From positions 1,632 to 65,631 of the forward strand of contig JBKHAG010000001.1 of the NCBI GenBank assembly GCA_046543005.1: a DNA stretch of 64,000 nucleotides, in the 5' to 3' direction. Positions within the stretch are counted from its first letter, which is position 1; each line of letters begins with the position of its first letter. The DNA is from Candidatus Woesearchaeota archaeon (lineage in GTDB: Archaea; Nanobdellota; Nanobdellia; Woesearchaeales; SKGA01). The position numbers and the translations under genes are program-made. The notes below the pieces were generated by a model. The model was not told the DNA's origin. It made no database searches and worked only from the letters and a program-made list of their open reading frames with translations. Shown here in pieces: positions 10,552 to 51,116 of the stretch.

Positions 10552-10596
10552 AACTATGCACACAAAAATAAACAAAAAATCCTTAGAGGTATAACG

Positions 10597-29832: not shown

Positions 29833-30402
29833 TTACTCACAAGTAAAAAAAGAAGAAATTTGTGATGCAGAATACCCTCTTTTACGAAGAGTTTTATAAA
29901 TTATTTCTTGAGAATATCCTTTTTTTTGTAAATCCCAAACATAGTTTTGTAATTGTACTTTTTGCTGATGATATGCATTTTCACTGTGCTCGACTCGTTT
30001 GATAATCAAAAAAATAAAAATGATTAATAAAATAAGACCTGCTGTGACAAACCAAACCCATGTAAATGAAGAAGTTTCTTCTTGTAAAATGCGAGACTCG
30101 GGTGCAGGAGCAATTATTTGAGTATTGTCTTCTATATCAAATACGTATTGTTGATATTCTTTTTTGAGTTCCTCAGATGTTGGTTGAGAATAATCTTCTA
30201 AAGAAACACCTGAATCGTTAACTAAAGGTGTTGAATCAAATTCATTAATGCAAGAAAGTGTTAAAAATTCCTGTACGCGAGGATCGTTTGTTGTAGATAC
30301 ATCTGCACAAGAAATGCAAGTAACTATAAAAGAACTGTTAGCCACTAATAAGATACATAAAATAAAAAATACTATTGGTTTTATACATTGTTTCTTACGC
30401 AT
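29833..30402 (-). CDS. Type I membrane protein (signal peptide + C-terminal TM) with cytoplasmic KKGY...ISSF tail; start corrected to internal ATG overlapping the giant-gene stop
   Basis: MRKKQCIKPIVFFILCILLVANSS... ; TM WVWFVTAGLILLIIFIFLII; tail LQKKGYSQEIIYKTLRKRGYSASQISSFF resembles the C-terminus of the 1073-aa giant protein. Confidence 0.45.
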   Translation of the reverse strand: MRKKQCIKPIVFFILCILLVANSSFIVTCISCADVSTTNDPRVQEFLTLSCINEFDSTPLVNDSGVSLEDYSQPTSEELKKEYQQYVFDIEDNTQIIAPAPESRILQEETSSFTWVWFVTAGLILLIIFIFLIIKRVEHSENAYHQQKVQLQNYVWDLQKKGYSQEIIYKTLRKRGYSASQISSFFTCE

Positions 30403-33400
30403 AAAACAAGCCTCCAGAGTATGAACAAACATCAACATCATTATCTTGCATATACTTTTGAGCATTTTGCCAATTAGTTGAACCATATTCAAAATGCCAT
30501 CTTTCGCCTTTAAAACAAAGCCAACCTAAAGGACATAAAAAATCTTCTTCAAATATTCGATTACCTTCTTCATTTTTTATGACTACATCTATTGCAGCGC
30601 CCTGCAAATGAGTGCAACCATCATTAAGGGTTTCAGGCGTTCCAGGATTACATGTAGGAACTTTCATTTTTCCAGTTTCTTCATCAATATCTTTTGAATT
30701 CATATCATATAACCATTTTTGGATATCATACGTTCTATGTGCTTGATTTATGTACATGGTGTAATTTGCTTCTTTAAGTTTTTTATCAAGCTCAACTAAT
30801 TGGTTTACGAGTTGAGGAATTGCTGCACAAATTCTACGTTTTTTATTTGGATCGTTTGTAAAATATGCTTCTTCACAAGTGATGCGTTCAAACTCAGGAA
30901 ATTCTATTGCATTAATACCTGTTACTGTTTCGTATTCTCCACCACATAAATCGTTTTGTAAAAAGGAATCTAATAAAACTGTCGCGTCGTGGCGCATTTG
31001 CATTGTTGAGGCGATAGTCTCTCCTTCTACTGCAAATACTGCATAGGAATATGTTTTACCATCGCAGGCAGTTACCAAACCTGCCTGAGTTGCAATATTA
31101 TGAGGATATGATTCTGATGCACTCATAAGACCTGTTTTTCCTATTGCAGTATCTTGAGTAAAACCTGAACTAGGCATGTCTGTAAAAAAAGGATATTCTA
31201 AATCATTATACATAGATAACATATCTATTGTTTTTTGTTGCGCTTGTTTTACGTGCGCATCGTATGCTTGTTGAGAAAGGCCTAAAGACTGTTTTACCTT
31301 TGAAGCCATAGATGAAGGTAATGTTAATTTTTTATTATATAATTGAGAATAAAATAAGGTAAAATCATCTGCAGTACTTGTTAAACTTGAACGATGATTT
31401 TTGTAAGCTTTAGCAGGGGAAATAGATGAAGAGGATACGCTTTGCCACGCAGTATATGTACTATCTTGTAAATTATTGTTTTCTAAAAAAGAATCTAAAG
31501 CAGAAAAAGCAGGAAGGGAAAAATCGTTTTGAGAAAGCATTGATTCAATATGCTCTAAAACGAGTGTTGTTTGTTTGTTATCGCTTACTTCAAGCATAGG
31601 TTGCACGTGAGTATCTAATTCAGGCCATTGATTTGCAGGCGTTAGTGCGTAAGCAAGGGACGCTAACTTTATTTTAAAGGCACTCATTGTATCGACAACT
31701 TTTTTAGAATTAACTGAAATAAAGGGTTCAGATACAAAAAGCATATCATCATTTGTAGTTGTTAAACTCACCGCTAAAAGACCATCTTCTTGGGAAAAAG
31801 CGTTAGCCAAATCATCTAAATCTTCTTTAAGGTAAGAAAATGCTTTTGTTTGAGAAAGTTGTGTTGAAGAATCCCCTTGAGCTACTTGTTCAATAGTTGG
31901 TGAAAAAGAACTAATTAAGTCCGTGTATTGTTGTTGGACAGTTCGTAAATAGGAACCAACATATACAAAACGTTCTGCGGCGCAGGATTGAGCAGGTTGT
32001 GCGAATGTTTTTTGAGGCCCATAAGGGGTGCTTGCAGTAAATGATTTAAATTGTATTTGTTGACTTTTTTGAGGATAATGAAGGTTATCATAAATATCAA
32101 TTTCTGAAGAAACAACAGAATACGTATGCGTATAATTTATATCTTCCACCATAGAATCTTGTGGAGCCCACAAATACGTGTATATAATAGAACCGTCATC
32201 TTGTATTTTTTTAAAAAGAGTATTTTTTTGATCATAAGGGTCTGCAAAATTTTCTCGTTCTTTTGCTCCTTGTAAAGGAATACGTCGGTGAGCAAGAGAA
32301 GAAGGTATTGATGCTAAGGAATCTTCATTCGCAGAATCATCTAACATACTTTTTTTGTATGTTTGATATTTTTCTTCTGAAGAATATAAATCTAAAACGA
32401 AAGCAAAAGGTTTATTTTCATCTTGAGTTATATTCCAAGAAATTAAAAGAGGAGTGCTATCTGTTGCGCATGCTTGTTGTTGTATTTTGGGCACAGTAGG
32501 TTCATAGTCTATTTGAGACGCAAGTTCAACACCAAAACGCAATTTTTTTTGTGTAAAAGGAAATTCTGCTTGAAAACGGTATGCTGTTTGCGCAAGAGAG
32601 CAAGAAAATTCACCATAAGAAGTGTTAAAAGGAATCCAATGAAGAGGATATAAACGAGTTGCTTTTTCATTTGTGCGCGATTCAGATTTTGCAGTTACAT
32701 CTCCACACATATCAACACGACAAAATGTTTGAATAGTGTATGTTCTTTCAATTTCTTCTAATGTATTGTAGCACACAGGATCTATTGAATGAATAAAAAT
32801 AGGTTCACCTTCAGGGTCTGGTTCAAATTCTAATTTACAACGAGAATTTTTTGGCGAAGGTTTTGAAATAATTCCTTTACCAACATATATTCCTGTATGT
32901 CCTAAAGCAGTTTTTTTTGTCGCGCTAAATAAATCCCCTGGACGCAATAGTGCAGGATTAATAAACTGGTTATCACGTGTTGATTGTTGATTACATTTAT
33001 CAAGTCCTGTACCTAAAATTTCTTTTTGTAAGGAATTGTTATTATCATCTTTTGCAAAATAATATACGCTTTCAACAAAAGTCGCATCTTGAGTTGTACA
33101 CGTGCCAGCAGAGGCGTCTTGAGCAGAACAGCGAGTTGTTTGTCCAAAACCTGTTCCTACATATTCTTTTGCATATTCAACAATATTTGAACAACTAGTA
33201 TCTTGAATTGATAACTCGTCAATGTCTTCTAAAAAAGTTACAAGTTCACAATATGTTTGTGTTAATTTTTGTGCGTATTCACACGTTTTATCTTTTGTAA
33301 AATAAGGTTTTCTTGTCGGGTCATCTCCTTGGGCTACAAGCGCATGATCATAACTTCCTTGATATGAACAAAAAATACAATTCCAATATGTTTGTGGATC

Positions 33401-35806
33401 GTTTTGATAGGGCGCGCATTTAACATAATTTCCTGCAGAAAGTGGTTGAGGAGTTTTAGTTAGTACTTCTTTTACTGCACCGCTATCGACTTGCGCAGTA
33501 CATCTAAACTGGTCAAGATCTGAGCGAACATATTCTTGTAAACTCGGTGTTGGTCCTTGCTCACAAATACTACTTTGCCAGCCACAACCAGTTAATGAAC
33601 TTTGTTGTGTGCTTAAAACACAACTATTTTGTAATCCCATGCTTGATTCATGTATTGCATGCGTAAGTAATAATGCAGGGTCTGCATCAAATTCTTTTGC
33701 AGCTTCTAAGGCGATTTCTAAATATGTTTTACCATCAGAATTCCAAGCAATTTCATATAATTGTTTTTGATAAGTTGTAGATAATTCTTCAGTTCCAGAA
33801 CATGAAAAAACAGGTCCTGTCGCATGAGAAACGTCTTTGAGATCATCTTGAGTATATGCTTTGTAAAGAGAAGGTTTAACATTTTTTACATCAACAAATG
33901 AAGGTAAAAAAGAATTTGTCATGAATTGTAAAGAATCAGATGATTGTTCTGTTGCAAAATCTTTATCAAACACCCACTTTTGTTGACCTGCATACAAGGT
34001 TGTTTTTTTATTTTCTTTGTCAAAAATAAAATATACTTGAGACTCTGCACTATCAGATAAATATAATTTAGTAGGTGAAAAAGGAAGTTGAGTAATATAT
34101 TGCATTGAATCAGTTTGTGGTTGTGCGTCTACAACTTTTGTAACAAAGGCTTGACCACTTTCAAAAAGTACCAAAGCCACTTTATCTTCAGAAGTTGGTA
34201 AAGAATAATCAATATCAAAAGTGCACACACAAGATGTTGTTTTTAATTGTTGACAAGCGAGTAATTGGTCTAAAAAATCATACACTAAAGCGTTTTCTTC
34301 CTTGTCAAGAGTTATTTTTGTTTTCAATTTATGTTTTTTATTAAACTGCGCAGTAATTTTTTTTACACAGTCTTTTGTTGGTTGCGTACATGACGTTTGC
34401 AAAGTCTGGACAAATTCATCTAGAGGGTTAAAATGAGAAAATAATAAAGAAGTAGAAGTTGAAAGCGAAGGCGTAAAATAAACAAACCCTCCTATATCAG
34501 TATCTTGTTGATTTGCGTTCTCTTCTATATTAGTAACACCGCTTTGATTATAAGAATAGCGAATAACTGCTAAGACATCTGTAAAATCAGAAGTTGCATA
34601 ATAATTGGGAATTGTGCGTTGTACTAAGCCTTGTGAAGGTGTTGATTGAATTATTTGTCCATCTCCAATATATAATGCGACTTCACTTATGGGTGTAGAT
34701 CTTTTAAAAGTGTCTGTAGAGTCTTGAATAAATAAGATATCCCCTGGTTGTGCCCTATCAAAAATATGTGTTAAACTACACGAAGGAATATCTTCATTTT
34801 GCAAACTACTCTTTTTTGAAGCTATAAAATCATCAAAATAAGTTCCACAAACAAGCGTAGTTTCTTCTTTTGTTGCAGCAACATAATATTGTGAAGGCGA
34901 ATCTCGTTGATTAAGTAAGGAAACATTTGCATGCTTTGCAACCCACCAAATCCAACCAGCGCTATCAAAACCAGGAGTTGAAGGTATTCTTGTTTGACTC
35001 ACGAATTGTTCTGCTACAACGTCATGAAAAAAACTTTTTTCTTCGTTTTTTGTTTGATCCTTAATTATTTGAGAAAAGGTATAAGGTGATTCTCCACCCG
35101 GCACATACTCAATATGTTGATCTCTTACGTGTCGCTCATAAAGTGATTGACCTACTTGAGCAAAACATTTTCCTGTTGAACACGTAATAATAGTTTCTTC
35201 TTGGATAGAATCAACATCTAGTAATTGAAGACGAAGTAAGGCATCTTGAATGCGAGGCACAGAATTTTGTGCTTGAACAGTTCGTTGTTTTAAAGGTATT
35301 TTTGGTTCTTGATCAATTGTTGCAAAAATCGTTGTGTGATTCTTTTCTTCTTTAAATTCATAGTCATACACAAACTGTAAGGAAACTGGTTGAAACTGAC
35401 CTACAAATTCTCGCACAGCTGCAGAAAGATACATTTGAAAAGATTCTTCAAAATCAGGAACACAATTTTTTGTAGGAGTTGCATAGGTGTTATATAATAG
35501 AGAACCACAAGGAGGTTTTTGTTTACTTCCCGAAACTGTATTTTGTAAAAAAATTCCGCCTTGTTCAAAAAAATCTTCTTGAGCTTTTTGAGCTGCAAAT
35601 GTCGCACCCATATCAATATAAAGATCAGCATATGTTGCCAGTTCTGATTTGTACAACATATCGTATTGTATTTCTCCAATAGGATTATCTACTTGAACAT
35701 TTGTAGCATTAGAAGACATCACTAAAAAAGTAATAAAAAGTAAAAATACTCCTACAGGCACACCTATAATAATTGCTTTTTTTGAAGACAATAATTCTTT
35801 TTTCAT
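30395..35806 (-). CDS. Giant (1803 aa) N-terminally anchored extracellular multi-domain murein-hydrolase-like protein: two NlpC/P60-like domains, SLT/lysozyme-like domain, C-terminal M15 (VanY-type D-Ala-D-Ala carboxypeptidase) domain
   Basis: NlpC/P60-like 1: GFDSAGWIWWV...PGDILFI...ISEVALYIGDGQII (cf. GFDCSGF...PGDLVFF...ISHVGIYVGNGQMI). NlpC/P60-like 2: QDASAGT...RPGDLFSA...GHTGIYVGKGIIS. SLT-like: LTHAIHESSMG...SLTGCGWQ. M15: CNPGTPETLNDGCTHLQGAAIDVV...GERWHFEYG (cf. PGTSEH..G.AIDI / E.WHF). N-terminal signal-anchor KKAIIIGVPVGVFLLFITFLVM. Confidence 0.65.
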   Translation of the reverse strand: MKKELLSSKKAIIIGVPVGVFLLFITFLVMSSNATNVQVDNPIGEIQYDMLYKSELATYADLYIDMGATFAAQKAQEDFFEQGGIFLQNTVSGSKQKPPCGSLLYNTYATPTKNCVPDFEESFQMYLSAAVREFVGQFQPVSLQFVYDYEFKEEKNHTTIFATIDQEPKIPLKQRTVQAQNSVPRIQDALLRLQLLDVDSIQEETIITCSTGKCFAQVGQSLYERHVRDQHIEYVPGGESPYTFSQIIKDQTKNEEKSFFHDVVAEQFVSQTRIPSTPGFDSAGWIWWVAKHANVSLLNQRDSPSQYYVAATKEETTLVCGTYFDDFIASKKSSLQNEDIPSCSLTHIFDRAQPGDILFIQDSTDTFKRSTPISEVALYIGDGQIIQSTPSQGLVQRTIPNYYATSDFTDVLAVIRYSYNQSGVTNIEENANQQDTDIGGFVYFTPSLSTSTSLLFSHFNPLDEFVQTLQTSCTQPTKDCVKKITAQFNKKHKLKTKITLDKEENALVYDFLDQLLACQQLKTTSCVCTFDIDYSLPTSEDKVALVLFESGQAFVTKVVDAQPQTDSMQYITQLPFSPTKLYLSDSAESQVYFIFDKENKKTTLYAGQQKWVFDKDFATEQSSDSLQFMTNSFLPSFVDVKNVKPSLYKAYTQDDLKDVSHATGPVFSCSGTEELSTTYQKQLYEIAWNSDGKTYLEIALEAAKEFDADPALLLTHAIHESSMGLQNSCVLSTQQSSLTGCGWQSSICEQGPTPSLQEYVRSDLDQFRCTAQVDSGAVKEVLTKTPQPLSAGNYVKCAPYQNDPQTYWNCIFCSYQGSYDHALVAQGDDPTRKPYFTKDKTCEYAQKLTQTYCELVTFLEDIDELSIQDTSCSNIVEYAKEYVGTGFGQTTRCSAQDASAGTCTTQDATFVESVYYFAKDDNNNSLQKEILGTGLDKCNQQSTRDNQFINPALLRPGDLFSATKKTALGHTGIYVGKGIISKPSPKNSRCKLEFEPDPEGEPIFIHSIDPVCYNTLEEIERTYTIQTFCRVDMCGDVTAKSESRTNEKATRLYPLHWIPFNTSYGEFSCSLAQTAYRFQAEFPFTQKKLRFGVELASQIDYEPTVPKIQQQACATDSTPLLISWNITQDENKPFAFVLDLYSSEEKYQTYKKSMLDDSANEDSLASIPSSLAHRRIPLQGAKERENFADPYDQKNTLFKKIQDDGSIIYTYLWAPQDSMVEDINYTHTYSVVSSEIDIYDNLHYPQKSQQIQFKSFTASTPYGPQKTFAQPAQSCAAERFVYVGSYLRTVQQQYTDLISSFSPTIEQVAQGDSSTQLSQTKAFSYLKEDLDDLANAFSQEDGLLAVSLTTTNDDMLFVSEPFISVNSKKVVDTMSAFKIKLASLAYALTPANQWPELDTHVQPMLEVSDNKQTTLVLEHIESMLSQNDFSLPAFSALDSFLENNNLQDSTYTAWQSVSSSSISPAKAYKNHRSSLTSTADDFTLFYSQLYNKKLTLPSSMASKVKQSLGLSQQAYDAHVKQAQQKTIDMLSMYNDLEYPFFTDMPSSGFTQDTAIGKTGLMSASESYPHNIATQAGLVTACDGKTYSYAVFAVEGETIASTMQMRHDATVLLDSFLQNDLCGGEYETVTGINAIEFPEFERITCEEAYFTNDPNKKRRICAAIPQLVNQLVELDKKLKEANYTMYINQAHRTYDIQKWLYDMNSKDIDEETGKMKVPTCNPGTPETLNDGCTHLQGAAIDVVIKNEEGNRIFEEDFLCPLGWLCFKGERWHFEYGSTNWQNAQKYMQDNDVDVCSYSGGLFYA

Positions 35807-36450
35807 GAGAGTGCCCCCTGTTTAGCATATGCTTGATCAGTAAATAATGATTGTAAACGAACACCTTCACTAAAACCTATTTTTGCATAACCTATAGATA
35901 CAACAATTTCGTACGTTTGGGGTGTTTCTGCTAATTGATTAAAATATGCAGGAATTTGTAAATGATAGGTTCCAAAAAAACCAGAAGAGTCGCTTGTTCG
36001 TGTATCACCATAGTTATAATGAGTCAAATCTAAAGGAACAATCTCTTTGTAAACCACACCATCTTTAAAGACACTTGCAATAAGTGTTTGTCCTGCATCT
36101 CGAGATAAAAACACTTTTGCTGCTTGTTGCAAAGAAGATTTTATTTTATTTTGCAATTGAGTATCTTTTATCGTTGTTGAAAATTCTAAAGCAAAATACA
36201 TATTAAGCCATTCATAGACAGGTTTTGTTGTTTCATCTATTTGTAAAGGAGTTTGCACGAAAGTTCTTAGTTGTTGTAAATTGTTACTCGCGTCCCGAGA
36301 TACTGTTAGGGTATCTTCACTTTTTGAAAGATTCGAATTGGTAATAAATAAAATCAATAATAAAGAGCCCACGATTAAAAGAGCTGCTAAAATAAAATCA
36401 GTAGCAAATAAAATTTGGAGTCCTTTTTTATTGAATCTTTTTTTATTCAT
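35803..36450 (-). CDS. Pilin-like protein with archaeal class III (type IV prepilin-like) signal peptide, 215 aa
   Basis: MNKKRFNKKG|LQILFATDFILAALLIVGSLLLILFI; 4-nt overlap with the downstream giant gene. Confidence 0.55.
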   Translation of the reverse strand: MNKKRFNKKGLQILFATDFILAALLIVGSLLLILFITNSNLSKSEDTLTVSRDASNNLQQLRTFVQTPLQIDETTKPVYEWLNMYFALEFSTTIKDTQLQNKIKSSLQQAAKVFLSRDAGQTLIASVFKDGVVYKEIVPLDLTHYNYGDTRTSDSSGFFGTYHLQIPAYFNQLAETPQTYEIVVSIGYAKIGFSEGVRLQSLFTDQAYAKQGALS

Positions 36451-36943
36451 GAAAGGCCACCTCCAAAAAAGCTGGAGAAAAATGAGATCCGTTATAGACT
36501 AAACAATATCTTTTGTAAATATTTTGTGAAGCTCCACCACCTAAGTGGAGTCGCTTATTTTCCATGTCCGAAGAAGACTTTAAATGATTTAAAGTAACTG
36601 TTAAAGAAGGTTGAGGCTCTGATGCAAAACAAGCATCAAGACTTGATTGATTAAATGAAGCATCATTTATAATATTTGGTTGAGGTTTTTGAGTCCCCGG
36701 ATCTGTATATGTAAAACAAGTCGAACTTATTCGTGCAAGGGCCAAATCGCGAGGCAATTCTTCAGGCACAGGACTTAAAGAGTCAATATATCCTCCAAAA
36801 AGTAAAACAAAAAATACTAAAATAATTACTATTGGAAATAACATCAATACCCAATATAATGCAGAACTGCTTGATTCAAAACCGCTTTGTGAATCAGCAG
36901 ATCCTTTTTTTGAACGCAATAATGTGCTTAAGCGACTATTCAT
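36443..36943 (-). CDS. Pilin-like/N-terminally anchored secreted protein, 166 aa
   Basis: LLRSKKG|SADSQ... followed by hydrophobic stretch WVLMLFPIVIILVFFVLLFGG; overlaps neighbours. Confidence 0.45.
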   Translation of the reverse strand: MNSRLSTLLRSKKGSADSQSGFESSSSALYWVLMLFPIVIILVFFVLLFGGYIDSLSPVPEELPRDLALARISSTCFTYTDPGTQKPQPNIINDASFNQSSLDACFASEPQPSLTVTLNHLKSSSDMENKRLHLGGGASQNIYKRYCLVYNGSHFSPAFLEVAFHE

Positions 36944-37908
36944 GCAACCACCTCTTCAAGGGCATGCACAACTCGTTTAGCAAATACTTGTTTAAATCCT
37001 TTTAACTCGTTAGTTGATTCTAAAAGCTTTGAAGAAAGTAAAGAGTTTTGAGAATTTGCAAAAGCAATTTCTATTGTTGGTTGCGTAGTTGCAGAAGATA
37101 ATTTTTGGGGAACGCGCAATACAACAATACGAGGTTCTAAATATGTAATTAAAGATTTTGCATACTGATGAGATAATTCTTTTTCATGTAAACTATAAAA
37201 TAATTGGGTTTTGTATGCTAAATCAGCATCTTTATCCATAAAGGAAAGTCGCAATACTACTGTTTTACTTGCGTCTGGTTGGTTAAAACCATCTTGTTGG
37301 AGTTGCGCAGTTATTGTTCTTGATAATTCATCAAGACTTGGTTGCATCAAAGGATTATTTTTTGCATCAACAACGACAGTTACATGTAAATCTTTTTTTT
37401 GATGATTTACTTTTTCATTAGCTAACATGTCTTGAACAAAAGAATAGTCAAAAGAATCATTTTTTAAAATAAGCGAAGAAGATGTTTTTAAAAATGAAAA
37501 AGATCGAGCGTGCAAATAAGCCGCAGGTTTTACCGTTATTAATGTTGATGCCCAAAATGATTTTGTGTATATTGAATATAAATCTTGGAGTTGTTCTAAA
37601 CTTTCATATGAAGCGTTAGTTGCGTCATCCTTATTAAGATCAAACGAAGATATTTTTATCTTATTTGTACTAACCGAAACAAAAGAATTTTGCGAAGGTG
37701 AAGAGTAAGAAACTTGAGTTACATAAGGAACTGCGTGTAAGGCGTCAACCAAGTAGGCGGTGTCTTTCATTAAAAATTGCTGTTGGATTTCATCAGGGTT
37801 TAAGACGGCAGAGACAATACTAAATAGAATAATTAAAATCATTGCAACTAATACAATGCTTAATAATTGTGACTGTGTTAAACCTAATGCACCTCTTTTT
37901 GATTTCAT
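36940..37908 (-). CDS. Pilin-like protein with class III signal peptide, 322 aa
   Basis: MKSKRG|ALGLTQSQLLSIVLVAMILIILF. Confidence 0.5.
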   Translation of the reverse strand: MKSKRGALGLTQSQLLSIVLVAMILIILFSIVSAVLNPDEIQQQFLMKDTAYLVDALHAVPYVTQVSYSSPSQNSFVSVSTNKIKISSFDLNKDDATNASYESLEQLQDLYSIYTKSFWASTLITVKPAAYLHARSFSFLKTSSSLILKNDSFDYSFVQDMLANEKVNHQKKDLHVTVVVDAKNNPLMQPSLDELSRTITAQLQQDGFNQPDASKTVVLRLSFMDKDADLAYKTQLFYSLHEKELSHQYAKSLITYLEPRIVVLRVPQKLSSATTQPTIEIAFANSQNSLLSSKLLESTNELKGFKQVFAKRVVHALEEVVA

Positions 37909-37955
37909 GCGTAAAGTATACTCCCTCTTTATAATAAATAATAGTAATAATACTA

Positions 37956-39668
37956 TTATGCTAAAGCAAATGATAAAATAAAAGAATCCCCTTCTCGCTT
38001 AAGCGGCAAGGCATATTTTTCAAACTCTTCTTTGTAATTTTCTTCAGGTTGAACATATTTAAAATAAACATCATTTTCATCATAATCAACCCATCCTGAT
38101 GTTAGTGTTAATGAAGAAACGGATTCAAAAGTTTTTTGATCACCGTTTGATAAAATTTCTTTTTGTAATTTAGTGAAGGGTAAATCTATTGTTGTTGAAT
38201 AAAAGCAATGATGCACAAATCTTTTATCAAGAGGATTTTTTTTACCTTCACATAAAGACATATTGGCAAGCACATAAGAATCCTTTTGGACAAAATGTAC
38301 TTGAGAATAGATAAAAGAATGCGAACCCTCACCCATCTGAGCAGACAGTATTTCTTTTCGTTTAGATGCGTAACGAGTTGCCGAATCAGATAATGTCCCA
38401 TCTAAAGAGTCTTCTAAATGTAAAATGAATTGATTAAATAATTTTATGTGGATTGTTGTAAATTCTTCTTTGGAAGAAAAGGACGGTAATAATTGATTTT
38501 CAACTAAATAGCTTAAACTATCAAAAGATTTTTTTTTAGAAGAAATATATTCTAACTGTTGTTGTTCTTTGAGCAAATCATTAGTAGTTTGTTTATTTAA
38601 TGGATCTACAGGTTGACCTACACCAATAACTAAAGGTGCTAAAAGTTCATTAGATTTTTCTTTGACCGATAAAGATTTTTGAAAAAGCATATTTATTGAA
38701 GGTCCTTCAAGTACTCGCTTTCGCGCTTGAGCTTTATTTTTAGCATAACCCATACCACCAATAACAACACCGCCATCCCACTGCATTGCTGAAGAAACAA
38801 ATTCTACAATATCTTTATCTTGATCTTTTAAATTATATTTAAAACGACTATCTTTTAAAGTGAATAATAAATCTTTACCATCTTTGAAAATATTATCAGC
38901 GTCTGAAGAACTAAAATAATCTAAAAGAGCTGGTTGAATAAGCGTCACGATATCCATTGATTGAGCAACAAATCCTTCGTTTGCTTTATCTGAGGATGTT
39001 CTTAATTTAAGAATCTCATTTACATAAGCATCTTGTTTTACTTTTTCGTTACTATTTGCACGTCCTCGTCTATTTCCAAATACAATGTTTTCTTCTTTAA
39101 ACGAATAACACGTTGGTTCTGAGCACATATAAGATTGTCCGACAATTAATTTTTGTGGAGCAACAAAAGGTTCTTCTTGAATTTTTGTCCAATAAGGACC
39201 TTCATCGCAATAACAAACGCAAGCTCTGTTGGTGCATTGTTTAACATCGGGGCGTAAAAAGGTATAAAAATAATTATCATCACGTAATGTGGAGGTTAGT
39301 TCTTCTGAGCGTTGAAATGTTGTTGTCGGATTAAATGACAAATGTATATCCTCTGATCCACCTGAAAAAAATAAAAAGAGTTCATCTTCATGAATTGTTA
39401 GAGGGACAGAAGATGTTGCGTAACCTTGAGTTATTAACATAGATGGAAAATCATCTAACAACGTTTCAGGAATAGTTACGTCTGGTTCATCTATATCTGC
39501 TAAATAATTAACATTGTGAACAAAGGTTTCTAAGAGTTGCGAATTATCAACATCAGGTCGCCAAAGATGAGTTCCTGCTTTTAAAAAAGCAAAAACTAAT
39601 ATGATAGTAAGTATAAGAGCAAGCATCATGCTTAAGACAGCCATTCCTTTTTTTGAAGTATAATCCAT
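37956..39668 (-). CDS. Large pilin-like protein with class III signal peptide, 570 aa
   Basis: MDYTSKKG|MAVLSMMLALILTIILVFAFL; Cys-containing extracellular domain. Confidence 0.5.
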   Translation of the reverse strand: MDYTSKKGMAVLSMMLALILTIILVFAFLKAGTHLWRPDVDNSQLLETFVHNVNYLADIDEPDVTIPETLLDDFPSMLITQGYATSSVPLTIHEDELFLFFSGGSEDIHLSFNPTTTFQRSEELTSTLRDDNYFYTFLRPDVKQCTNRACVCYCDEGPYWTKIQEEPFVAPQKLIVGQSYMCSEPTCYSFKEENIVFGNRRGRANSNEKVKQDAYVNEILKLRTSSDKANEGFVAQSMDIVTLIQPALLDYFSSSDADNIFKDGKDLLFTLKDSRFKYNLKDQDKDIVEFVSSAMQWDGGVVIGGMGYAKNKAQARKRVLEGPSINMLFQKSLSVKEKSNELLAPLVIGVGQPVDPLNKQTTNDLLKEQQQLEYISSKKKSFDSLSYLVENQLLPSFSSKEEFTTIHIKLFNQFILHLEDSLDGTLSDSATRYASKRKEILSAQMGEGSHSFIYSQVHFVQKDSYVLANMSLCEGKKNPLDKRFVHHCFYSTTIDLPFTKLQKEILSNGDQKTFESVSSLTLTSGWVDYDENDVYFKYVQPEENYKEEFEKYALPLKREGDSFILSFALA

Positions 39669-39699
39669 ATTCTTTACAACTACTTTTGCTTATATGAAC

Positions 39700-40344
39700 C
39701 TATGCAGAATCCTCTTTTGAATCTTCATCAAGATATTTAGCATCATTAATTTTTTGTATACATTCATCTTTTGGCGTGGCGCAAACAGTTTCTAAATTAT
39801 TTGGACTAAATAATGTTCCTGCGCCGTCTTTTTTAATTTTTAAAAAATCTCTTTCAAAATCAGCAGGAGTACACATTTTATCGTCACCAGATGCTCCATT
39901 AAAACAAAATAATGTTGGTGAAGGTTGCTCATCTAAAGAATCGAGCAAATAATCTTTTTCAGGTTCAGGTAAATGTAATTTCACATCCTCATTTCCTGTG
40001 TTTTTTAAAGCCAAATAATTAATAATTTCATCTCGCGCAATAGCAGAAATATTATGAACTTCCTCTTTAAACAATTTATAACCGCGTTCATCATTTGAAA
40101 CCCATACTAAGTCATCAATAACATATCGCACCGCGTAAGGGTCATCTTTACTGTCGCACGGACAAGGATCAATAATATTTTTTAAGCCATCATCATCATA
40201 ATCTGATTGTTCTAAATATTCCTTAATAGTTTCGCCTCCTTTATCAGTTGCGTCTCCGACCAGAAATATCATTGCTAAAATAATAACGATTATAACTATT
40301 AATGAGCCCACTAAAGATAATGTACTTAATCCTTTTTTATTCAT
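39700..40344 (-). CDS. Pilin-like protein with class III signal peptide (start corrected), ~214 aa
   Basis: Internal start MNKKG|LSTLSLVGSLIVIIVIILAMIFLVG (ATG 40342-40344); ORF-track 22-codon N-extension unlikely. Confidence 0.5.
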   Translation of the reverse strand: MNKKGLSTLSLVGSLIVIIVIILAMIFLVGDATDKGGETIKEYLEQSDYDDDGLKNIIDPCPCDSKDDPYAVRYVIDDLVWVSNDERGYKLFKEEVHNISAIARDEIINYLALKNTGNEDVKLHLPEPEKDYLLDSLDEQPSPTLFCFNGASGDDKMCTPADFERDFLKIKKDGAGTLFSPNNLETVCATPKDECIQKINDAKYLDEDSKEDSA

Positions 40345-40603
40345 TTTGTATACCTCGCGAAGAATCAGAATATTGTGCGTTACTAGGTGACTGGACACCT
40401 TCAGAAGCACTAAATAATGAAGAAACAGCGCCGCCTATTCTGTTAAATAAAGTATCTGGGCTGGTGACTTCATCAACACTACTGTCTGCTCGTCCAAACC
40501 CATTTGTAAAAAATAGAGTTAATAATAATAAAACGATAACACCTATGATTAAATACATAATCATGGAAAATCCTATTCCTTTTTTATCTTGTTTGTCTAT
40601 CAT
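40337..40603 (-). CDS. Small pilin-like protein, 88 aa
   Basis: MIDKQDKKG|IGFSMIMYLIIGVIVLLLLTLFF; 8-nt overlap with next gene. Confidence 0.5.
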   Translation of the reverse strand: MIDKQDKKGIGFSMIMYLIIGVIVLLLLTLFFTNGFGRADSSVDEVTSPDTLFNRIGGAVSSLFSASEGVQSPSNAQYSDSSRGIQNE

Positions 40604-40611
40604 ATATCCAC

Positions 40612-40797
40612 CTAACGTTTTGCTCCTGAAAACAAACTACCTAACGTTTCTAAAAGAGAACCTCCTTTATCGGCTTGTTTTGTCATAAAAATAATAACGA
40701 GTAATAAACTAATAACTGCTACAGCCATTATAATAATTGTTGTCATAGAGATTTCTCCTTTCTTAAAAGGTATATGTTGTATCATCTTGTAAAACAT
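40612..40797 (-). CDS. Very small pilin-like protein, 61 aa (candidate major filament subunit)
   Basis: HIPFKKG|EISMTTIIIMAVAVISLLLVIIF then short polar tail; size typical of major pilins of Flp/archaeal type. Confidence 0.45.
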   Translation of the reverse strand: MFYKMIQHIPFKKGEISMTTIIIMAVAVISLLLVIIFMTKQADKGGSLLETLGSLFSGAKR

Positions 40798-41567
40798 TGC
40801 GCCTCCAACGCATCTTGAAGTGGCATTACACTTAACACATATAAATACTCGTGATGTGAAAATAATGTTTTAACCGATTGAATTGTACTGTATGTTGAAC
40901 CTAAAGGTCCTAAAAGGACTCCAACTGCTTGATGTTTAAGTATTTTGGTGTTTTTGGAATCCTCTGCTCCTGCAAAAACACCAATAACATATGTTTCTTT
41001 AGCTTTTATTGGTTGACTAATAAAAATAGAAAAATCAACTTCAGATTTGGCATCTGGGTGTGACAAAATATATTCAGAATATGTATAAGGAACATCGTCA
41101 ATTACTTTATATTGTGTAGAGTTTAAAAATTTTAGATAATGCTCTGGTTCTATTTGAGTATCTGAAGATATTTTTTGAGGATCTAAAGAAAATTGATACA
41201 TAATAAAACATTTTTCATCTTCAAAAAAATTAGTATCCCACACATCATTAATATTTCCGTGATGTAAAATCCACGCAGTATTTGCAAGCATATTAGCAAG
41301 TTCTTTTTGAACTTGATAGGATGTTTTTCCTTCTTGAGGTAATGTTTTTGAAATAGTTCGACATTGATTATTTATAGTGGGAACTATTTTTAAATCATCA
41401 CTGGCTTTTTGTAAACCCAACATAAGATGACACGCGAGTCCTTCTTGACCGTCTTGGACAATTGTACCCATACCCATAAAGTGTGCGATTAAAAGTCCTG
41501 CAGATATGACAAAAAATATAATAATAATAAGTGTCGACATTCCTACAGTTATTGCTTTTTTATCCAA
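40782..41567 (-). CDS. Pilin-like protein, paralog of 41775-42638 (261 aa); apparent TTG start
   Basis: (L/M)DKKA|ITVGMSTLIIIIFFVISAGLLIA; shared motifs with neighbour: C(H)(L/A)MLG(L/V)Q, GHGN..D(V/L)W, DD(V/F)PYTY(S/A)(E/D)Y(I/V)(L/M)(S/H)HPD(A/T)K.E.D. Confidence 0.5.
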   Translation of the reverse strand: MDKKAITVGMSTLIIIIFFVISAGLLIAHFMGMGTIVQDGQEGLACHLMLGLQKASDDLKIVPTINNQCRTISKTLPQEGKTSYQVQKELANMLANTAWILHHGNINDVWDTNFFEDEKCFIMYQFSLDPQKISSDTQIEPEHYLKFLNSTQYKVIDDVPYTYSEYILSHPDAKSEVDFSIFISQPIKAKETYVIGVFAGAEDSKNTKILKHQAVGVLLGPLGSTYSTIQSVKTLFSHHEYLYVLSVMPLQDALEAQCFTR

Positions 41568-41688
41568 ACAAATTCACCTTTTTTATAATTACTGACGCTA
41601 CAAGTAAAAAAACAAGGAGTAAAAAAGTAATTGATAAAATCCATTCAGTCGTGCTTGCTTTTTTTGTAGTAAATAGGGTGCTTCTCAT
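41560..41688 (-). CDS. Unannotated 42-aa small ORF with class III-like N-terminus in the spacer between the two paralogs (below ORF-track size cutoff)
   Basis: MRSTLFTTKKA|STTEWILSITFLLLVFLLVASVIIKKVNLFG; TATA-like TATTTAAATA ~30 nt upstream of ATG 41686-41688; TAA stop overlaps start of 40782-41567 (TTGGATAA). Confidence 0.3.
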   Translation of the reverse strand: MRSTLFTTKKASTTEWILSITFLLLVFLLVASVIIKKVNLFG

Positions 41689-41774
41689 AGCATTTTTAAA
41701 GAAAAGAAAGTATTTAAATATAGCGTTTATGAAAAATAAGTAAAGAGTTTTTTACCAAGAAGAAAAATCTTTAT

Positions 41775-42638
41775 TTATAAGGTATCTTGCTCGTTAAGGT
41801 ACACACAACCCGAGCTTATTGCTTCTTCTAGTGTTGAAAACCAAATAATTGTAGTATCGACTCTAAAATCATCAATAATAACTTTACCCAGCACTCCTGT
41901 AAATACATATCCTAATATATTTGCTAATCGACTGGAACTATCTATACTCATAACGCTTATTGCATAAAATTGATTAGTAGATAGATTTTTTTCTTGTAAA
42001 TGTTGAGAAGACACTTTGACAATTTCTTTTTTTTCTTGAGCGTAAAAAGGAGCCAATAATACATCATGCTCTATTTTTGTATCGGGATGATGCATAACAT
42101 AATCTGCGTAGGTATAAGGAAAATCATCGATTGTTTTATACAACGTAGAATTTAAATATAAATCTAAAGATAAATAATTCATTTGTGACTGCATTTCTTC
42201 AGGTATCTTTGTTTTAGGAATTTGAATTTCATAAACAATACCACATTCAGAATTTCTAAAAAAATCATAATCACCCCACAAGTCAGGATAATTTCCGTGA
42301 CCAATAACCCACGATGTTTGAGCAATATAATTTGAAATTTCAGAAAATATCTGTTGAGGAGTGCGAGAGTTTTGGGAAATTTCTCGACGCATTGTTTGAC
42401 AAGTATTTTGTACTTTAGTATTAGCTAAAGCAGTCTCTCTATTGGTAAAATCTTGAACGCCTAACATCGCGTGACATAGTTGTTCTTCTTCTAAAGAATT
42501 AATTGAATTATGAGTTGAAAAAATAATAGCAACAAGTAAGCCAAAACCAATAAGTGCAATAATAATAATAACGAGTTTTGTCACGCCTATATTTGCTTTT
42601 TTAGAACATAGTTTTTGTTTCACACTACCACGACTCAC
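41775..42638 (-). CDS. Pilin-like protein, paralog of 40782-41567 (287 aa)
   Basis: LCSKKA|NIGVTKLVIIIIALIGFGLLVAIIF; paralogous motifs as above. Confidence 0.5.
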   Translation of the reverse strand: MSRGSVKQKLCSKKANIGVTKLVIIIIALIGFGLLVAIIFSTHNSINSLEEEQLCHAMLGVQDFTNRETALANTKVQNTCQTMRREISQNSRTPQQIFSEISNYIAQTSWVIGHGNYPDLWGDYDFFRNSECGIVYEIQIPKTKIPEEMQSQMNYLSLDLYLNSTLYKTIDDFPYTYADYVMHHPDTKIEHDVLLAPFYAQEKKEIVKVSSQHLQEKNLSTNQFYAISVMSIDSSSRLANILGYVFTGVLGKVIIDDFRVDTTIIWFSTLEEAISSGCVYLNEQDTL

Positions 42639-42640
42639 GT

Positions 42641-43918
42641 TTATGCAGTTTCACAAACACCTGCAGAATTCCAAAAACAATTTACATCACAATACTCATT
42701 TGAACCTATACATATTTCTTCTGACTCATAACCCGAACACGCTTTACAAGTATAACAGTCACCTCGACCTTCTGGTTTTGAAGCCTTTTTTGGCACCCAA
42801 AAACAATCAGTATCTTCATATGCGAAATTATTAATTAGGCATTGATTTGAATCACAACTACCTTTCGTATCGTAGTCTTGACAAGAACTAACTGTTGAGC
42901 AAGACGTACATCTTGGCGAGCCTATAAAAGGATCTACCACGTGACAATTTAAAGAAAACCACATGTTTTTTTCTGGACGTTGACTATAGTCTAAACATGA
43001 TTGAATAGAAAATAAATCACAAGTTGTTGCTCCACTAAAGAAGAATGATTCAATAATATCTTCTTGGGAACCAATAATAAAGGTATCACAATAAACAGGT
43101 AAACTGTTTTCAACATTATCTAAATGCAGTCCTAATTCATCACTACCTAAACTAAATGTTGGACAAGGAACTTTATAATCATTATCTGGTGCAGAATACG
43201 TCTTCATTTCTGTTAAATTAAGCGAATTTTGCTTGTGTATATTTTCTTCATACACGCAACCTGCTTGGTTTTGTCCCCAAGCTAAATCAACCGTGACATC
43301 TTGTAATGCAAAAGGTTCTTGATCAGGATTCGTATGCGCTTGCACACCTAAAAAACAAAAATGTTCATTATTTCGTTGTCGTGAATAAAAATGTCCTGTA
43401 ATAGAACCAACAAGTAAAGGTTGGGAAGAATTATTTAGCAAAGCACCAGGATCATACTTTGTTGTTGAAGAATCACTTGTAGATGAAGCATCACTTGAGG
43501 AAGTGCTATCTGATGAAGTATCGCTTGATGAATCTTCTTGAGAGGAATCTTGTGAATTATAATTTAGCGAAGAATCAAGCACTTCAACATCTTCTCCAGC
43601 TTTCCATTTGTCAAAATATTCTTGTGGGACGGAAGGTTTTTTTACACAACAAATATAGTCTTTTTTGGTTTGAACAATTGTTGACTGCATAGAAACTTTT
43701 GAATTACATTCCTCGCTTGCGTTAAGCAAAACGCCTCCATAATTAGCACAATTTTCTTGAAAATTTTGTACAGGCGATGCTGCTCGAAAAAGCGTAGGAA
43801 ATAAAATAGCCAAGATAACAATCATTACTGCTATTCCAATAATAATTGCCCATGTCATATCAATAGATCCCTTGCGGGACGATAAAAAAGAAGAAGAAAA
43901 AGAAAACAAAATTGTCAC
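42641..43918 (-). CDS. Cys-rich pilin-like/secreted protein with poly-Ser/Asp linker, 425 aa
   Basis: SSRKG|SIDMTWAIIIGIAVMIVILAILF; linker SSQDSSQEDSSSDTSSDSTSSSDASSTSDSSTT; C-terminal half with >20 Cys. Confidence 0.5.
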   Translation of the reverse strand: MTILFSFSSSFLSSRKGSIDMTWAIIIGIAVMIVILAILFPTLFRAASPVQNFQENCANYGGVLLNASEECNSKVSMQSTIVQTKKDYICCVKKPSVPQEYFDKWKAGEDVEVLDSSLNYNSQDSSQEDSSSDTSSDSTSSSDASSTSDSSTTKYDPGALLNNSSQPLLVGSITGHFYSRQRNNEHFCFLGVQAHTNPDQEPFALQDVTVDLAWGQNQAGCVYEENIHKQNSLNLTEMKTYSAPDNDYKVPCPTFSLGSDELGLHLDNVENSLPVYCDTFIIGSQEDIIESFFFSGATTCDLFSIQSCLDYSQRPEKNMWFSLNCHVVDPFIGSPRCTSCSTVSSCQDYDTKGSCDSNQCLINNFAYEDTDCFWVPKKASKPEGRGDCYTCKACSGYESEEICIGSNEYCDVNCFWNSAGVCETA

Positions 43919-44176
43919 CTATAATTCTCTACAACAGATTTGTTCTCCATCACAAGATCCGCCAATAAGTTTTATTTGACCGTCTGGACAGCTACCGTCA
44001 ACAGAATTTATGCAATTTCCTTCATAAATACCATAAGAACAATCTTGAGATGTGGTTACATCGCTACTTGCTCCAAAAATAAGTACTGCTAAAACAACCA
44101 ACACAATAAGTGCAATTGCTGCAATGATAATTACATTCATGGATAATCCTTGACCTTTTTTAGATTTAAAATTCAT
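43919..44176 (-). CDS. Small pilin-like protein with Cys-rich C-terminal knob, 85 aa
   Basis: MNFKSKKG|QGLSMNVIIIAAIALIVLVVLAVLIF ... CSYGIYEGNCINSVDGSCPDGQIKLIGGSCDGEQICC. Confidence 0.55.
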   Translation of the reverse strand: MNFKSKKGQGLSMNVIIIAAIALIVLVVLAVLIFGASSDVTTSQDCSYGIYEGNCINSVDGSCPDGQIKLIGGSCDGEQICCREL

Positions 44177-44271
44177 ACAAACACCTCGTTTGATTGTACT
44201 GTAACTAAGAAAACATCATATTTAAATCTTTGTATAACAAAAAAGAAAAAAAGAAAAAATTGAACAAACAA

Positions 44272-44817
44272 TTAGTCGTTATAAATATCACAAGCAACAT
44301 AAAATTCTGCTTGAGCTGCTTGAACAGGAATTGTTTGTAAAAACACATTTTCTAAATGAAGAGGTCCAACAGTATCACCTTCAGACAAGGTATATTGAGA
44401 ATCTTCTATTATTATTGTTACAGTTTCAGATTCACTATTAACGCCTAATAACTGATAATCTAAGCCACAAAGAGTTGGATTACCAGAGTAATTATAAGTA
44501 CTTGTTTGTTCTGCAGAAACAGGAATTGTTTGAGTATACGTTTCAATAATAGTATACCCTTCAAAACCCATTACTACACGCATTGGAAAAAGATTTTCAT
44601 CAAAAGAATTTTTTGCTTTACTAATCTTTGAATCAACAAAATACTTCGCATCTCCTGCTAAATTTTCACTAGAAGTAGCATCATCTAAAACCATCCCGGC
44701 ATCATTAGGTATTGCCGTTTTATGTCCAGAAGTCGTTGTCATAATCAAACTAATAACTCCTATAATCGCTACTACAGCAACAAGAGAAATTAGTGCCAAA
44801 TTATTATTTTTATCCAT
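44272..44817 (-). CDS. Pilin-like protein, 181 aa
   Basis: MDKNNNLALISLVAVVAIIGVISLIM N-terminal hydrophobic segment. Confidence 0.45.
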   Translation of the reverse strand: MDKNNNLALISLVAVVAIIGVISLIMTTTSGHKTAIPNDAGMVLDDATSSENLAGDAKYFVDSKISKAKNSFDENLFPMRVVMGFEGYTIIETYTQTIPVSAEQTSTYNYSGNPTLCGLDYQLLGVNSESETVTIIIEDSQYTLSEGDTVGPLHLENVFLQTIPVQAAQAEFYVACDIYND

Positions 44818-44904
44818 TTTTTAAACACCTCACAACCTTAAAAAAGTTATGTCAATTAAAAATAATACTCAATAATATATAATATGTATCGATTTTCAAT
44901 AAAT

Positions 44905-45965: not shown

Positions 45966-46060
45966 TTTTATTTTGTATTCTCTTTTTGTTTTTTTAAGTG
46001 CACATTTTTCTTTTGTTCTTTTTTATTATACTGTTTTTTATTTTCTTTTTGTTTATTTCT

Positions 46061-51086: not shown

Positions 51087-51116
51087 CCATTCACCTCTTT
51101 TTGTAAAATAAAATAA

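Follow-up and report, generated by a model that had tools for sequence, protein, structure and literature searches.

The window analysed here is a 64,000-nucleotide stretch of a Candidatus Woesearchaeota contig (JBKHAG010000001.1), and its features of interest are collected in Table 1. The central one is an open reading frame of 1803 aa on the minus strand, which the ORF list and the translation confirm as real. A protein from a Candidatus Woesearchaeota MAG at NCBI (P0001) matches it at 100% identity, and an orthologue (P0002) is about 61-62% identical to it. The window also includes archaeal RNase P RNA, NAC and RPA genes, which together with the identical MAG protein bear out the claim that the protein is archaeal. 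It has 41 Cys residues, conserved pairs among them, which along with the N-terminal transmembrane (TM) segment or leader suggest that it is extracellular.

Table 1. Features of the hydrolase locus, with positions in the window and residue ranges (res) in the 1803-aa protein.
Feature	Position	Strand	Evidence
T2SSE (Type II/IV secretion-family ATPase)	907..3174	-	Pfam E 3.8e-14
Partner gene conserved downstream (~189 aa; signal of Sec type, C-terminal TM helix)	29833..30402	-	overlaps hydrolase stop
Whole gene: modular cell-wall hydrolase with pilin-like N-terminus	30395..35806	-	ORF list, translation, orthologue matches
M15B/VanY-type zinc peptidase domain (res 1640-1790): R1691, H1733, D1740, E1768, H1771	30437..30889	-	profiles, residue conservation
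~580-residue segment (res 1037-1620)	30947..32698	-	partial homologues P0108 and others
NlpC/P60 copy 2 (res 868-1036), with Asp907 in place of the nucleophile Cys	32699..33205	-	family alignment, codon check, Pfam
Divergent GH23-like lysozyme-fold domain (res 675-865), Cys-rich, putative catalytic E720	33212..33784	-	AF2 model, homologue alignment
Segment without Pfam match, common to many family members (res 426-644)	33875..34531	-	local phmmer map
NlpC/P60 copy 1 (res 270-410), catalytically degenerate	34577..34999	-	Pfam, PDB alignment to 6biq, family alignment
Conserved N-terminal module (res 35-200), candidate pilin-type	35207..35704	-	28-sequence alignment
Class-III-signal-like leader MKKELLSSKK-A, then 20-residue hydrophobic helix (res 1-31)	35714..35806	-	hydropathy and motif scan
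Upstream cluster, about 15 genes with prepilin-like N-termini	35803..47287	-	motif scan, synteny
85-aa short pilin candidate in the cluster	43919-44176	-	best PDB match is the archaellin 5z1l N-terminus

The hydrolase gene is the last of a run of genes that share an N-terminal motif. A [KR][GA] pair followed by a hydrophobic helix is present in 15/16 consecutive ORFs between 30395 and 47287, and in 0/27 ORFs in the remaining window to the left of the cluster. The start and stop codons of neighbouring cluster genes overlap by 4-8 nt, and the ATG of the hydrolase gene has a 4-nt overlap with the stop of the gene upstream. For the 85-aa ORF, the match to archaellin (E 0.13) is to the leader processed by FlaK. 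Five other loci of related archaea (L001, L004-L007), one of them in a Nanobdellota genome, have the same arrangement, and the partner gene lies directly downstream of the hydrolase in 6/6 loci. The original prediction had put the protein at the distal end of a pilin operon; the position is confirmed, and with 15 of the 16 genes carrying the motif and the synteny, the context is stronger than first stated. The locus is chromosomal and conserved, and it adjoins housekeeping genes. The T2SSE ATPase, 27 kb from the cluster, is a possible motor for filament assembly. A partial multi-TM ORF adjoining it has no Pfam match, and a scan of window ORFs detected no prepilin peptidase (Peptidase_A24) among those covered.

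The leader reads KK-A-IIIGVPVGVFLLFITFLVM, which fits a short basic N-terminus, a [KR]-[GA] motif and a hydrophobic helix of about 20 residues. Hydropathy and the motif scan both agree with the N-terminal anchor first proposed, and the pattern of [KR][KR][GA] plus a TM segment is found in 27/28 family members. The motif suggests a class-III signal; the Pfam class-III-signal model reports no match for any protein of the cluster. Following the helix, the conserved N-terminal module has the motif IGxxQY..L…YID…PCG…C.P.F, in which the Cys pair is invariant, and it is common even to small relatives with a single enzyme domain. Residues 1-215 have no match in Pfam, NCBIfam or PDB-profile searches. 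Whereas classical pilins have a continuous alpha-1 helix, this one is broken after the TM helix by a polar stretch of about 10 residues with Pro and Gly. These features are also those on which an ordinary hydrolase could be proposed, one that is membrane-anchored or Sec-secreted, with a signal anchor or class-I signal at its N-terminus and small membrane proteins for neighbours, and without any filament. The hydrophobic stretch could serve as a signal anchor, and such an enzyme would be consistent with the helix break, with the absence of Pfam pilin or class-III matches and with the absence of a prepilin peptidase from the window; Sec or Tat signals are also the rule for most of the published archaeal peptidoglycan hydrolases with known signals (PMC12352652). 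However, Sec signals would not be expected to have [KR][KR][GA] right ahead of the helix, as 27/28 homologues and 15/16 neighbour genes do, and both the archaellin-like N-terminus of the 85-aa protein and the conservation of the cluster and its gene order across six loci also count against it. We regard the ordinary hydrolase as a serious but rather doubtful alternative.

Two stretches of the protein match the Pfam family NlpC/P60 (PF00877, MEROPS C40), which has a gathering cut-off of 23 bits. When the copies are rescanned singly (residues 265-425 and 870-1035), copy 1 scores 30.1 bits (E 5e-7), above the cut-off, and copy 2 scores 18.7, below it. The second segment of the prediction stands nevertheless as a family member, with 49 homologues aligning well across it and its counterpart in P0002 scoring 27.9 bits, above the cut-off. 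The catalytic Cys-His-(His/Glu/Gln) triad is incomplete in both copies. In copy 1, S282, E375 and Q387 are found where Cys, His and His are expected, according to the alignment to 6biq and the family alignment. The first two are the substitutions that had been read by eye (GFDSAGW and SEVALY), and Q387 adds a third. In copy 2, the Cys is missing as proposed, but not at S899 in QDASAGT, for which the wrong stretch had been aligned; the true column is D907 in TTQDATFV (codon GAT), which is Cys in 47/49 homologues and Asp solely here. H970 and H1006 are kept. The loss in copy 2 is specific to this protein, since the ~61% identical P0002 retains the Cys. Across the NlpC/P60 domains of the family, loss of Cys is accompanied by loss of His (Fisher p=0.004), and this, together with the wholly missing triad of copy 1, favours the suggestion of pseudo-enzymes that only bind. 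Both copies are members of the fold that are predicted to be inactive as cysteine peptidases. Copy 1, though catalytically dead, is still under constraint, as its identity to the orthologue is 63% against 62% for the entire protein.

The domain first described as SLT-like is so at the level of the fold, a GH23-like lysozyme fold. Pfam SLT (PF01464; CAZy GH23) does not match the 1803-aa protein even at E<=10, and the only Pfam matches to the domain are weak ones to Glucosaminidase. Amongst homologues of the domain, weak matches are found to SLT in 1/34, to SLT_2 in 2/34 and to Glucosaminidase in 19/34. Aligned by hhalign to the canonical SLT domains of sister proteins, the domain gives a probability of 3%, in effect no match; it is not a member of Pfam SLT. 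The AF2 model (pLDDT 85.7) has a lysozyme-type fold, and in the sequence alignment E720, a Glu in 41/43 homologues, falls on the catalytic Glu of goose lysozyme. The domain is a candidate glycosidase or lytic transglycosylase.

The M15 domain at the C-terminus likewise scores below threshold as a single sequence, with 20.2 bits (E 5.5e-4) against Pfam VanY (PF02557, cut-off 25), and P0002 reaches 22.1 bits. The prediction of an M15 signature is upheld by the family: 33/35 homologous domains match VanY (best E 9.6e-13), and a profile of the 35 sequences finds in the PDB YodJ (4ox3, E 6.4e-9), VanXYg (4mur, 1.7e-8), VanX (1r44, 4.5e-7), Ply500 (2vo9, 1.2e-6) and LdcB (1.3e-5). The complete R…H-x6-D…E-x-W-H signature is present, with a LAS-type zinc site (H-x6-D … H), the catalytic Glu of E-x-x-H and the upstream Arg. 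R1691, H1733, D1740, E1768, W1770 and H1771 are near-invariant; without the Trp, conservation over 43 homologues is 88-100%, and those five align with their counterparts in 4ox3 and 4mur. The metal and acid residues, the absence of which would have spoken against the assignment, are all in place, and the domain is apparently active. Of the remaining sequence, residues 426-644 and 1037-1620 have no Pfam match; a per-segment comparison finds the stretch best kept in P0002, at 71% identity, to be residues 1361-1620.

The folds of all three murein-active classes are present in the protein as predicted, the SLT class as a fold only. By alignment and model, two payload domains are shown to retain putative catalytic residues (the lysozyme-fold and M15B domains), and the two NlpC/P60 domains to have no nucleophile. 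One could argue that all four domains just bind cell-wall polymer and that the protein is a non-enzymatic adhesin, as the nucleophile is lost in both NlpC/P60 copies and the other two domains diverge strongly and stay under their Pfam thresholds. But in the M15 domain the metal ligands, the catalytic Glu and the Arg are all in place and vary hardly at all over 35-43 homologues, and E720 is conserved in 41 of 43. These residues have been kept selectively in a protein whose NlpC/P60 triads have visibly decayed. We consider a pure adhesin unlikely.

Comparison of positional orthologues identifies a swapping of payloads, in which the N-terminal module and the locus are kept and the enzyme domains are exchanged. 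Sister proteins at the same locus position carry Pfam-significant YkuD (60.9 bits), Muramidase (PF11860, 126.9), Amidase_2 (48), canonical SLT (29-33 bits) and GDSL domains. Because of the YkuD, Amidase_2, Muramidase and canonical SLT payloads, bacterial peptidoglycan appears the most plausible target, and the swapping fits the idea that payloads diversify as an adaptation to different target walls. In pseudomurein, the N-acetyltalosaminuronic acid is beta-1,3-linked and the peptides are all-L, and the polymer resists lysozymes and D-amino-acid-specific peptidases, which makes it an unlikely target on chemical grounds. The known pseudomurein endoisopeptidases belong to a different family, and the YkuD, MurNAc-L-Ala amidase and muramidase domains of the sister proteins are specific to murein. 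An association of Woesearchaeota with methanogens has been proposed (discussed in PMC9723730), and pseudomurein of methanogen hosts, in place of bacterial murein, could be the target on that account, a possibility that the original prediction had raised; given the above, we find this extremely improbable. A housekeeping autolysin or envelope remodeller directed at the wall polymer of the archaeon itself, for instance to let a filament through, is also very improbable. Specialised lytic transglycosylases do serve envelope crossing in bacterial secretion and pilus systems, and the gene is co-located with a filament-like cluster. However, murein and pseudomurein are not known from archaea outside Methanobacteriales and Methanopyrales, there are no Mur genes in the window, and the exchange of at least 5 peptidoglycan-specific enzyme classes among positional orthologues looks driven by a target rather than like conserved housekeeping.

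Murein hydrolases in an archaeon are no longer the surprise that the original prediction took them for. Large extracellular proteins with a murein transglycosylase have been reported in small-genome Woese- and Pacearchaeota, where they are suggested to bind bacterial walls or degrade them (fam00969, PMC8204110; Vigneron 2022, PMC9723730; PMC10936187), and Strock et al. (2025, PMC12352652) have demonstrated killing of bacteria by archaeal peptidoglycan hydrolases. By description, our protein matches the fam00969 type in lineage, very large size, extracellular location, lysozyme-superfamily domain and proposed role, and appears to be a variant of that kind. The sister proteins carry canonical SLT, unlike the lysozyme-fold domain here. 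The three reports cover the transglycosylase domain only, with no NlpC/P60, M15, YkuD, amidase or muramidase payloads, and mention neither a pilin-like leader nor a conserved gene cluster; the link to a pilus-like cluster appears undescribed before. The modular hydrolases of Strock et al. have the same bacterial-type cleaving domains, are prominent in Nanoarchaeota and are proposed, and partly shown, to be antibacterial. Their survey was limited to proteins with a known Pfam wall-binding domain, and the signals in it were Sec/Tat, whereas our protein has no recognised binding domain, stacks four enzyme-type domains, of which two are dead, and has a prepilin-like leader. In architecture, it resembles two groups: modular type IV pilins such as PilB and PilC of Streptococcus sanguinis, in which filaments display the functional modules that have been grafted (Raynaud et al. 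2021, PMC8179133), and the archaeal class-III-signal substrate-binding proteins of the bindosome (bioRxiv 10.64898/2026.04.22.720090). The class-III-type leader, the small N-module and the grafted modules are common to them, as is a place amongst pilin genes. Those modules are mainly adhesins, lectins and binding proteins, from bacteria or Sulfolobales, and neither paper mentions "hydrolase" or "peptidoglycan"; here the payload has ~1600 residues, and the N-module is only a candidate for a pilin fold. Bacterial and phage multi-domain wall hydrolases and interbacterial effectors (NlpC/P60+lysozyme endolysins; T6SS Tse1 and Tse3) differ in delivery, as there are no T6SS or phage genes here, and also in that ours has an archaeal host, a conserved chromosomal locus by housekeeping genes and 2/4 enzyme domains degenerate.

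With moderate confidence, we favour the explanation that the last gene of the pilin-like cluster encodes a surface-displayed enzyme complex with which this Woesearchaeote binds and cuts bacterial peptidoglycan. The protein would be exported by a class-III-type signal, and displayed either by anchoring through its N-terminal helix or by incorporation, via the conserved N-terminal module, in a pilus-like filament or at its tip. The lysozyme-fold and M15B domains would cleave the polymer in its glycan strands and its peptide stems, and the dead NlpC/P60 modules would most likely bind stem peptides or act as scaffold. The purpose may be to contact, breach or feed on bacterial cells. Several observations count against this explanation: in the protein's own sequence neither the M15 nor the lysozyme-like domain reaches its Pfam gathering threshold, the T2SSE ATPase is at a distance and no prepilin peptidase was found in the window, and no DPANN archaeon has a cultivated bacterial host (PMC11291902). 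A subunit of 1800 residues is also very large for a filament to take up.

A more tentative possibility, which goes further than the surface-displayed complex, is that Woesearchaeota have a dedicated type-IV-filament apparatus in which the largest and last "pilin" is an exchangeable cassette for cutting and binding peptidoglycan, a wall drill mounted on a pilus. If so, the drill would allow a DPANN archaeon to reach across domains, attaching to bacterial cells and breaching them, and the shuffling of payloads between lineages would be the evolution of host range.

The ORF of the original prediction is unbroken over 1803 codons, and its product, the hydrolase, carries several wall-enzyme-type domains behind a prepilin-like leader (coordinates of all features in the window are in the table). 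A whole-protein Pfam scan finds NlpC/P60 in two stretches (E 2e-9), as well as VanY (E 0.02) and Glucosaminidase (E 0.19), and no match to SLT. Scanned alone, NlpC/P60 copy 1 scores 30.1 bits against a cut-off of 23, and copy 2 scores 18.7 bits, below that cut-off, but 27.9 bits in P0002, an orthologue. VanY falls below its cut-off (20.2 bits against 25), as does Glucosaminidase (18.2 against 30.2).

Table. Features of the window, with positions on the forward strand
Feature	Position	Strand	Description
Hydrolase	30395-35806	-	1803 aa
Residues 1361-1620 of the hydrolase	30947-31726		71% identity between the two orthologues
Prepilin-like cluster	30395-47287	-	16 consecutive ORFs
85-aa ORF	43919-44176	-	MNFKSKKGQGLSMNVIIIAAIAL…; Cys-rich tail
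Downstream protein	29833-30402	-	~189 aa; Sec-type signal and C-terminal TM helix; overlaps hydrolase stop codon
Four consecutive giant ORFs	47865-63883	-	1073, 1422, 1176 and 1187 aa; just upstream of the cluster
Giant ORF with prepilin-like leader	55535-59065		
Type II/IV-secretion (T2SSE-family) ATPase	907-3174	-	
ATPase and partial multi-transmembrane ORF	1-3174	-	partial ORF crosses left window edge
Archaeal RNase P RNA	24403-24761	-	84.2 bits
Three tandem paralogous ORFs	6023-7978	-	239, 205 and 190 aa
Two adjacent class-II tRNA synthetase genes	8842-11892	+	Asp/Asn/Lys-type

In copy 1, alignment with the PDB and alignment of 19 family sequences both place S282, E375 and Q387 at the Cys, His and His positions of active members, in agreement with the substitutions of Cys and His predicted by eye. 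Eight family members keep the Cys, and both His are kept in all eight of them (8/8); when the Cys is lost, the first His is kept in only 3 of 10 informative members (Fisher p=0.004). As judged from the alignment, this co-loss marks repeated degeneration into a pseudo-enzyme. The two options raised before were a Ser nucleophile and a binding-only pseudo-enzyme; we reject the first because Cys loss across the family accompanies His loss, and copy 1 lacks the His and the third residue as well. The identity of copy 1 between the two orthologues (63%, versus 62% for the rest of the hydrolase) argues that the dead domain is under continuing constraint; the simplest reading would be that it binds or acts as a scaffold. 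Copy 2 also lacks the Cys, as had been proposed, but the by-eye alignment (QDASAGT) was eight residues off, and the catalytic column is D907 (TTQDATFV, codon GAT). That column is a Cys in 47/49 homologues, including the 61% orthologue (TQCGTFV), and an Asp solely in the hydrolase of the window. A sequencing error is rejected, since going from TGY to GAT requires two substitutions. Copy 2 retains H970 and H1006, and its third His is located past a 22-residue insertion (IFIHS).

The M15 signature holds at the level of the family. A profile of 35 sequences matches the solved M15 peptidases YodJ (6e-9), VanXYg (2e-8), VanX, LdcB and Ply500; Pfam VanY is matched by 33 of the 35 members, and residues R1691, Q1696, H1733, D1740, E1768, W1770 and H1771 are near-invariant. 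The module is a genuine M15B-type zinc peptidase and, going by these residues, apparently catalytically active; a purely adhesive protein is a less likely reading. Single-sequence PDB searches give only matches of the 'CPLGWLCFKGERWHFEY' stretch to C-type lectins; these are spurious, a chance effect of composition or motif, and we reject them because the family profile matches M15 enzymes instead. For the region predicted as SLT, a 34-sequence profile matches goose-type lysozyme and a phage glucosaminidase no more than weakly (E about 0.25), with E720 lined up with the catalytic Glu. The AF2 model from the 34-sequence alignment is confident (pLDDT 85.7, pTM 0.84), Foldseek lists goose-type lysozyme and glucosaminidase families for it with E-values that are not significant, and comparing its profile with those of canonical SLT domains from sister proteins reveals no relationship. 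Together, matches, model and the lack of an SLT relationship identify the domain as a divergent lysozyme-fold (GH23-like) module that is not a Pfam SLT member. These comparisons establish the fold or family of the modules and which catalytic centers are intact; the original prediction observed most of this correctly, with one catalytic position misaligned and one family name too specific.

The hydrolase matches a hypothetical protein from a Candidatus Woesearchaeota MAG at 100% identity, and its sole other full-length relative in a 5.8-billion-protein database is P0002 (1822 aa, 61% identical), encoded in a fully syntenic locus. Word-indexed searches with the whole hydrolase and a two-sequence profile (E<=10) return just the hydrolase itself and one orthologue, and a GTDB genome scan finds no relatives. 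An exhaustive HMMER search of 1.84 billion representatives, with residues 604-1803 as the query, gives 121 relatives, which by local remapping match discrete modules of the hydrolase. Names given to relatives at source are 'NlpC/P60 family protein [Ca. Woesearchaeota / Nanobdellota archaeon]' and 'cell wall-associated NlpC family hydrolase/D-alanyl-D-alanine dipeptidase'. Residues 1361-1620, the best-conserved stretch outside the N-terminus, match no known domain; P0108, a stand-alone relative of 381 aa that matches this stretch, has no Pfam family either.

The window is archaeal: it encodes an RNase P RNA of the archaeal kind as well as NAC, RPA and housekeeping genes of archaeal type. Its G+C is ~33% all along with no compositional island at the hydrolase gene. 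A prophage or tail-lysin origin is rejected because the locus is chromosomal, adjoining RPA, RNase P, NAC and ABC genes, and syntenic in six genomes. The RNase P RNA is barely recognised, scoring just over the gathering score of 84, which suggests that it is divergent or reduced in this Woesearchaeote lineage. Elsewhere, the three tandem paralogues share the N-terminal motif D(V/I)ILPF.L.FT..FA.LEKT and have no Pfam family, and of the two synthetase genes only the first includes the GAD insertion domain that typifies AspRS of the bacterial type.

The hydrolase starts with MKKELLSSKK-A followed by a hydrophobic helix of 20 residues, and a [KR][KR][GA]+TM leader is found in 27/28 family members. 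Downstream lies a conserved module of ~170 residues (IGxxQY…YID…PCG…CxP), also common to small single-enzyme relatives, for which we find no match in Pfam or in a profile search of the PDB; within the window, matches of its profile to cluster proteins are confined to the leader region. The placement of the hydrolase at the distal end of a pilin-like operon is borne out: a [KR][GA] directly precedes an N-terminal hydrophobic helix in 15 of the 16 consecutive ORFs of the cluster, and in 0/27 ORFs in the rest of the window to its left. Genes in the cluster overlap by 4-8 nt and include short pilin-sized ORFs. Among them, the 85-aa ORF is the strongest candidate major filament subunit. Its leader is nearly identical to those of ORFs in two loci of related archaea, L001 (1516-1773) and L005 (52-336), and in the PDB it best matches an archaellin, 5z1l, at the processed N-terminus (E 0.13, not significant alone). 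The partial ORF that follows the T2SSE ATPase has no Pfam match, and the position of the two genes suggests a filament ATPase and platform protein pair. No prepilin peptidase is found within the window. Big_13 Ig-like matches occur in two of the four giant ORFs, and one giant ORF has the same leader as the cluster; all four may belong to the same surface system as adhesins.

Five further loci share the gene order: L001, L004, L006, L007 and, from a Nanobdellota genome, L005. Consecutive prepilin-like genes come first, then three that encode about 300, 165 and 210 aa, the big hydrolase, and a ~185-aa Sec-signal protein, with RPA, YdjM and an ABC transporter close by. The small Sec-signal gene is immediately downstream of the hydrolase in 6/6 loci, and might encode a partner, a chaperone or an immunity-like protein. 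In the big protein, the N-terminal module is constant across loci and the payload varies: NlpC/P60, lysozyme-fold and M15 (P0007); lysozyme-fold and two NlpC/P60 (P0005); NlpC/P60, GDSL, canonical SLT and YkuD (P0006); NlpC/P60 and Muramidase PF11860 (P0011). Two family members outside the examined loci have NlpC/P60, SLT and CHAP-like (P0004) and Amidase_2 with SH3_3 (P0036). Taking L004-L007 with P0004, P0006, P0011, P0025 and P0036, payloads comprise YkuD L,D-transpeptidase, GDSL/SGNH esterase, canonical SLT, Muramidase PF11860 and Amidase_2+SH3_3; some relatives pair the divergent lysozyme-fold domain with a canonical SLT in one protein. All four modules occur together only in the window protein and its close orthologue. 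The leader motif, the conserved cluster and the variable payload are direct readings of these loci. The strongest argument for bacterial murein as the substrate, one of the targets originally proposed, is that the sister payloads are peptidoglycan-specific; a pseudomurein-directed enzyme and an autolysin acting on the archaeon's own wall are less likely.

The hydrolase may be exported by the class-III route. Modular pilins (PMC8179133) and archaeal proteins that bind substrates and carry a class-III signal (bioRxiv 10.64898/2026.04.22.720090) suggest, by analogy, that it could then be displayed on a type-IV-like filament or at its base or tip. The lysozyme-fold domain would cut glycan strands and the M15 domain stem peptides, the dead NlpC/P60 copies would bind, and the protein could be used to attach to, breach or scavenge from bacteria. 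We consider this the likeliest reading, with moderate confidence; its most novel version, a pilus-mounted 'wall drill', we offer tentatively, as possible rather than probable. The main rival of the likeliest reading is an ordinary hydrolase, membrane-anchored or secreted, in which a filament plays no part, and which would make the protein one further member of the already reported DPANN wall-hydrolase class.

Binding or degrading bacterial walls has been proposed as the role of large murein-transglycosylase proteins of Woese-/Pacearchaeota (PMC8204110), a theme taken up again in PMC9723730 and PMC10936187. A 2025 study reports modular peptidoglycan hydrolases in about 5% of archaeal genomes, prominently Nanoarchaeota, and two haloarchaeal ones that kill a bacterium (PMC12352652). 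Murein-hydrolase domains in an archaeal protein are therefore no surprise in 2026, and the original interpretation, right in part, overstated the novelty. In the searchable literature we do not find a payload of several enzyme classes with dead NlpC/P60 copies among them, the conserved prepilin-like carrier module, a hydrolase as member of a conserved ~15-gene pilin-like cluster, or payload swapping between positional orthologues.

To our knowledge, the hosts of every cultivated DPANN archaeon are archaea. That the very abundant Woese-/Pacearchaeota live on bacteria has so far been argued only from 'murein transglycosylase' genes. This locus makes the hint concrete and testable, with a conserved prepilin-like gene cluster, a conserved N-terminal carrier module, and a lineage-variable wall-enzyme payload with live and dead catalytic centers readable from sequence. 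The M15 and lysozyme-fold domains are defined constructs for zymography, and the dead NlpC/P60 copies for binding tests. The locus offers a marker from which to predict host wall chemistry in metagenomes, and may yield new antibacterial enzymes.
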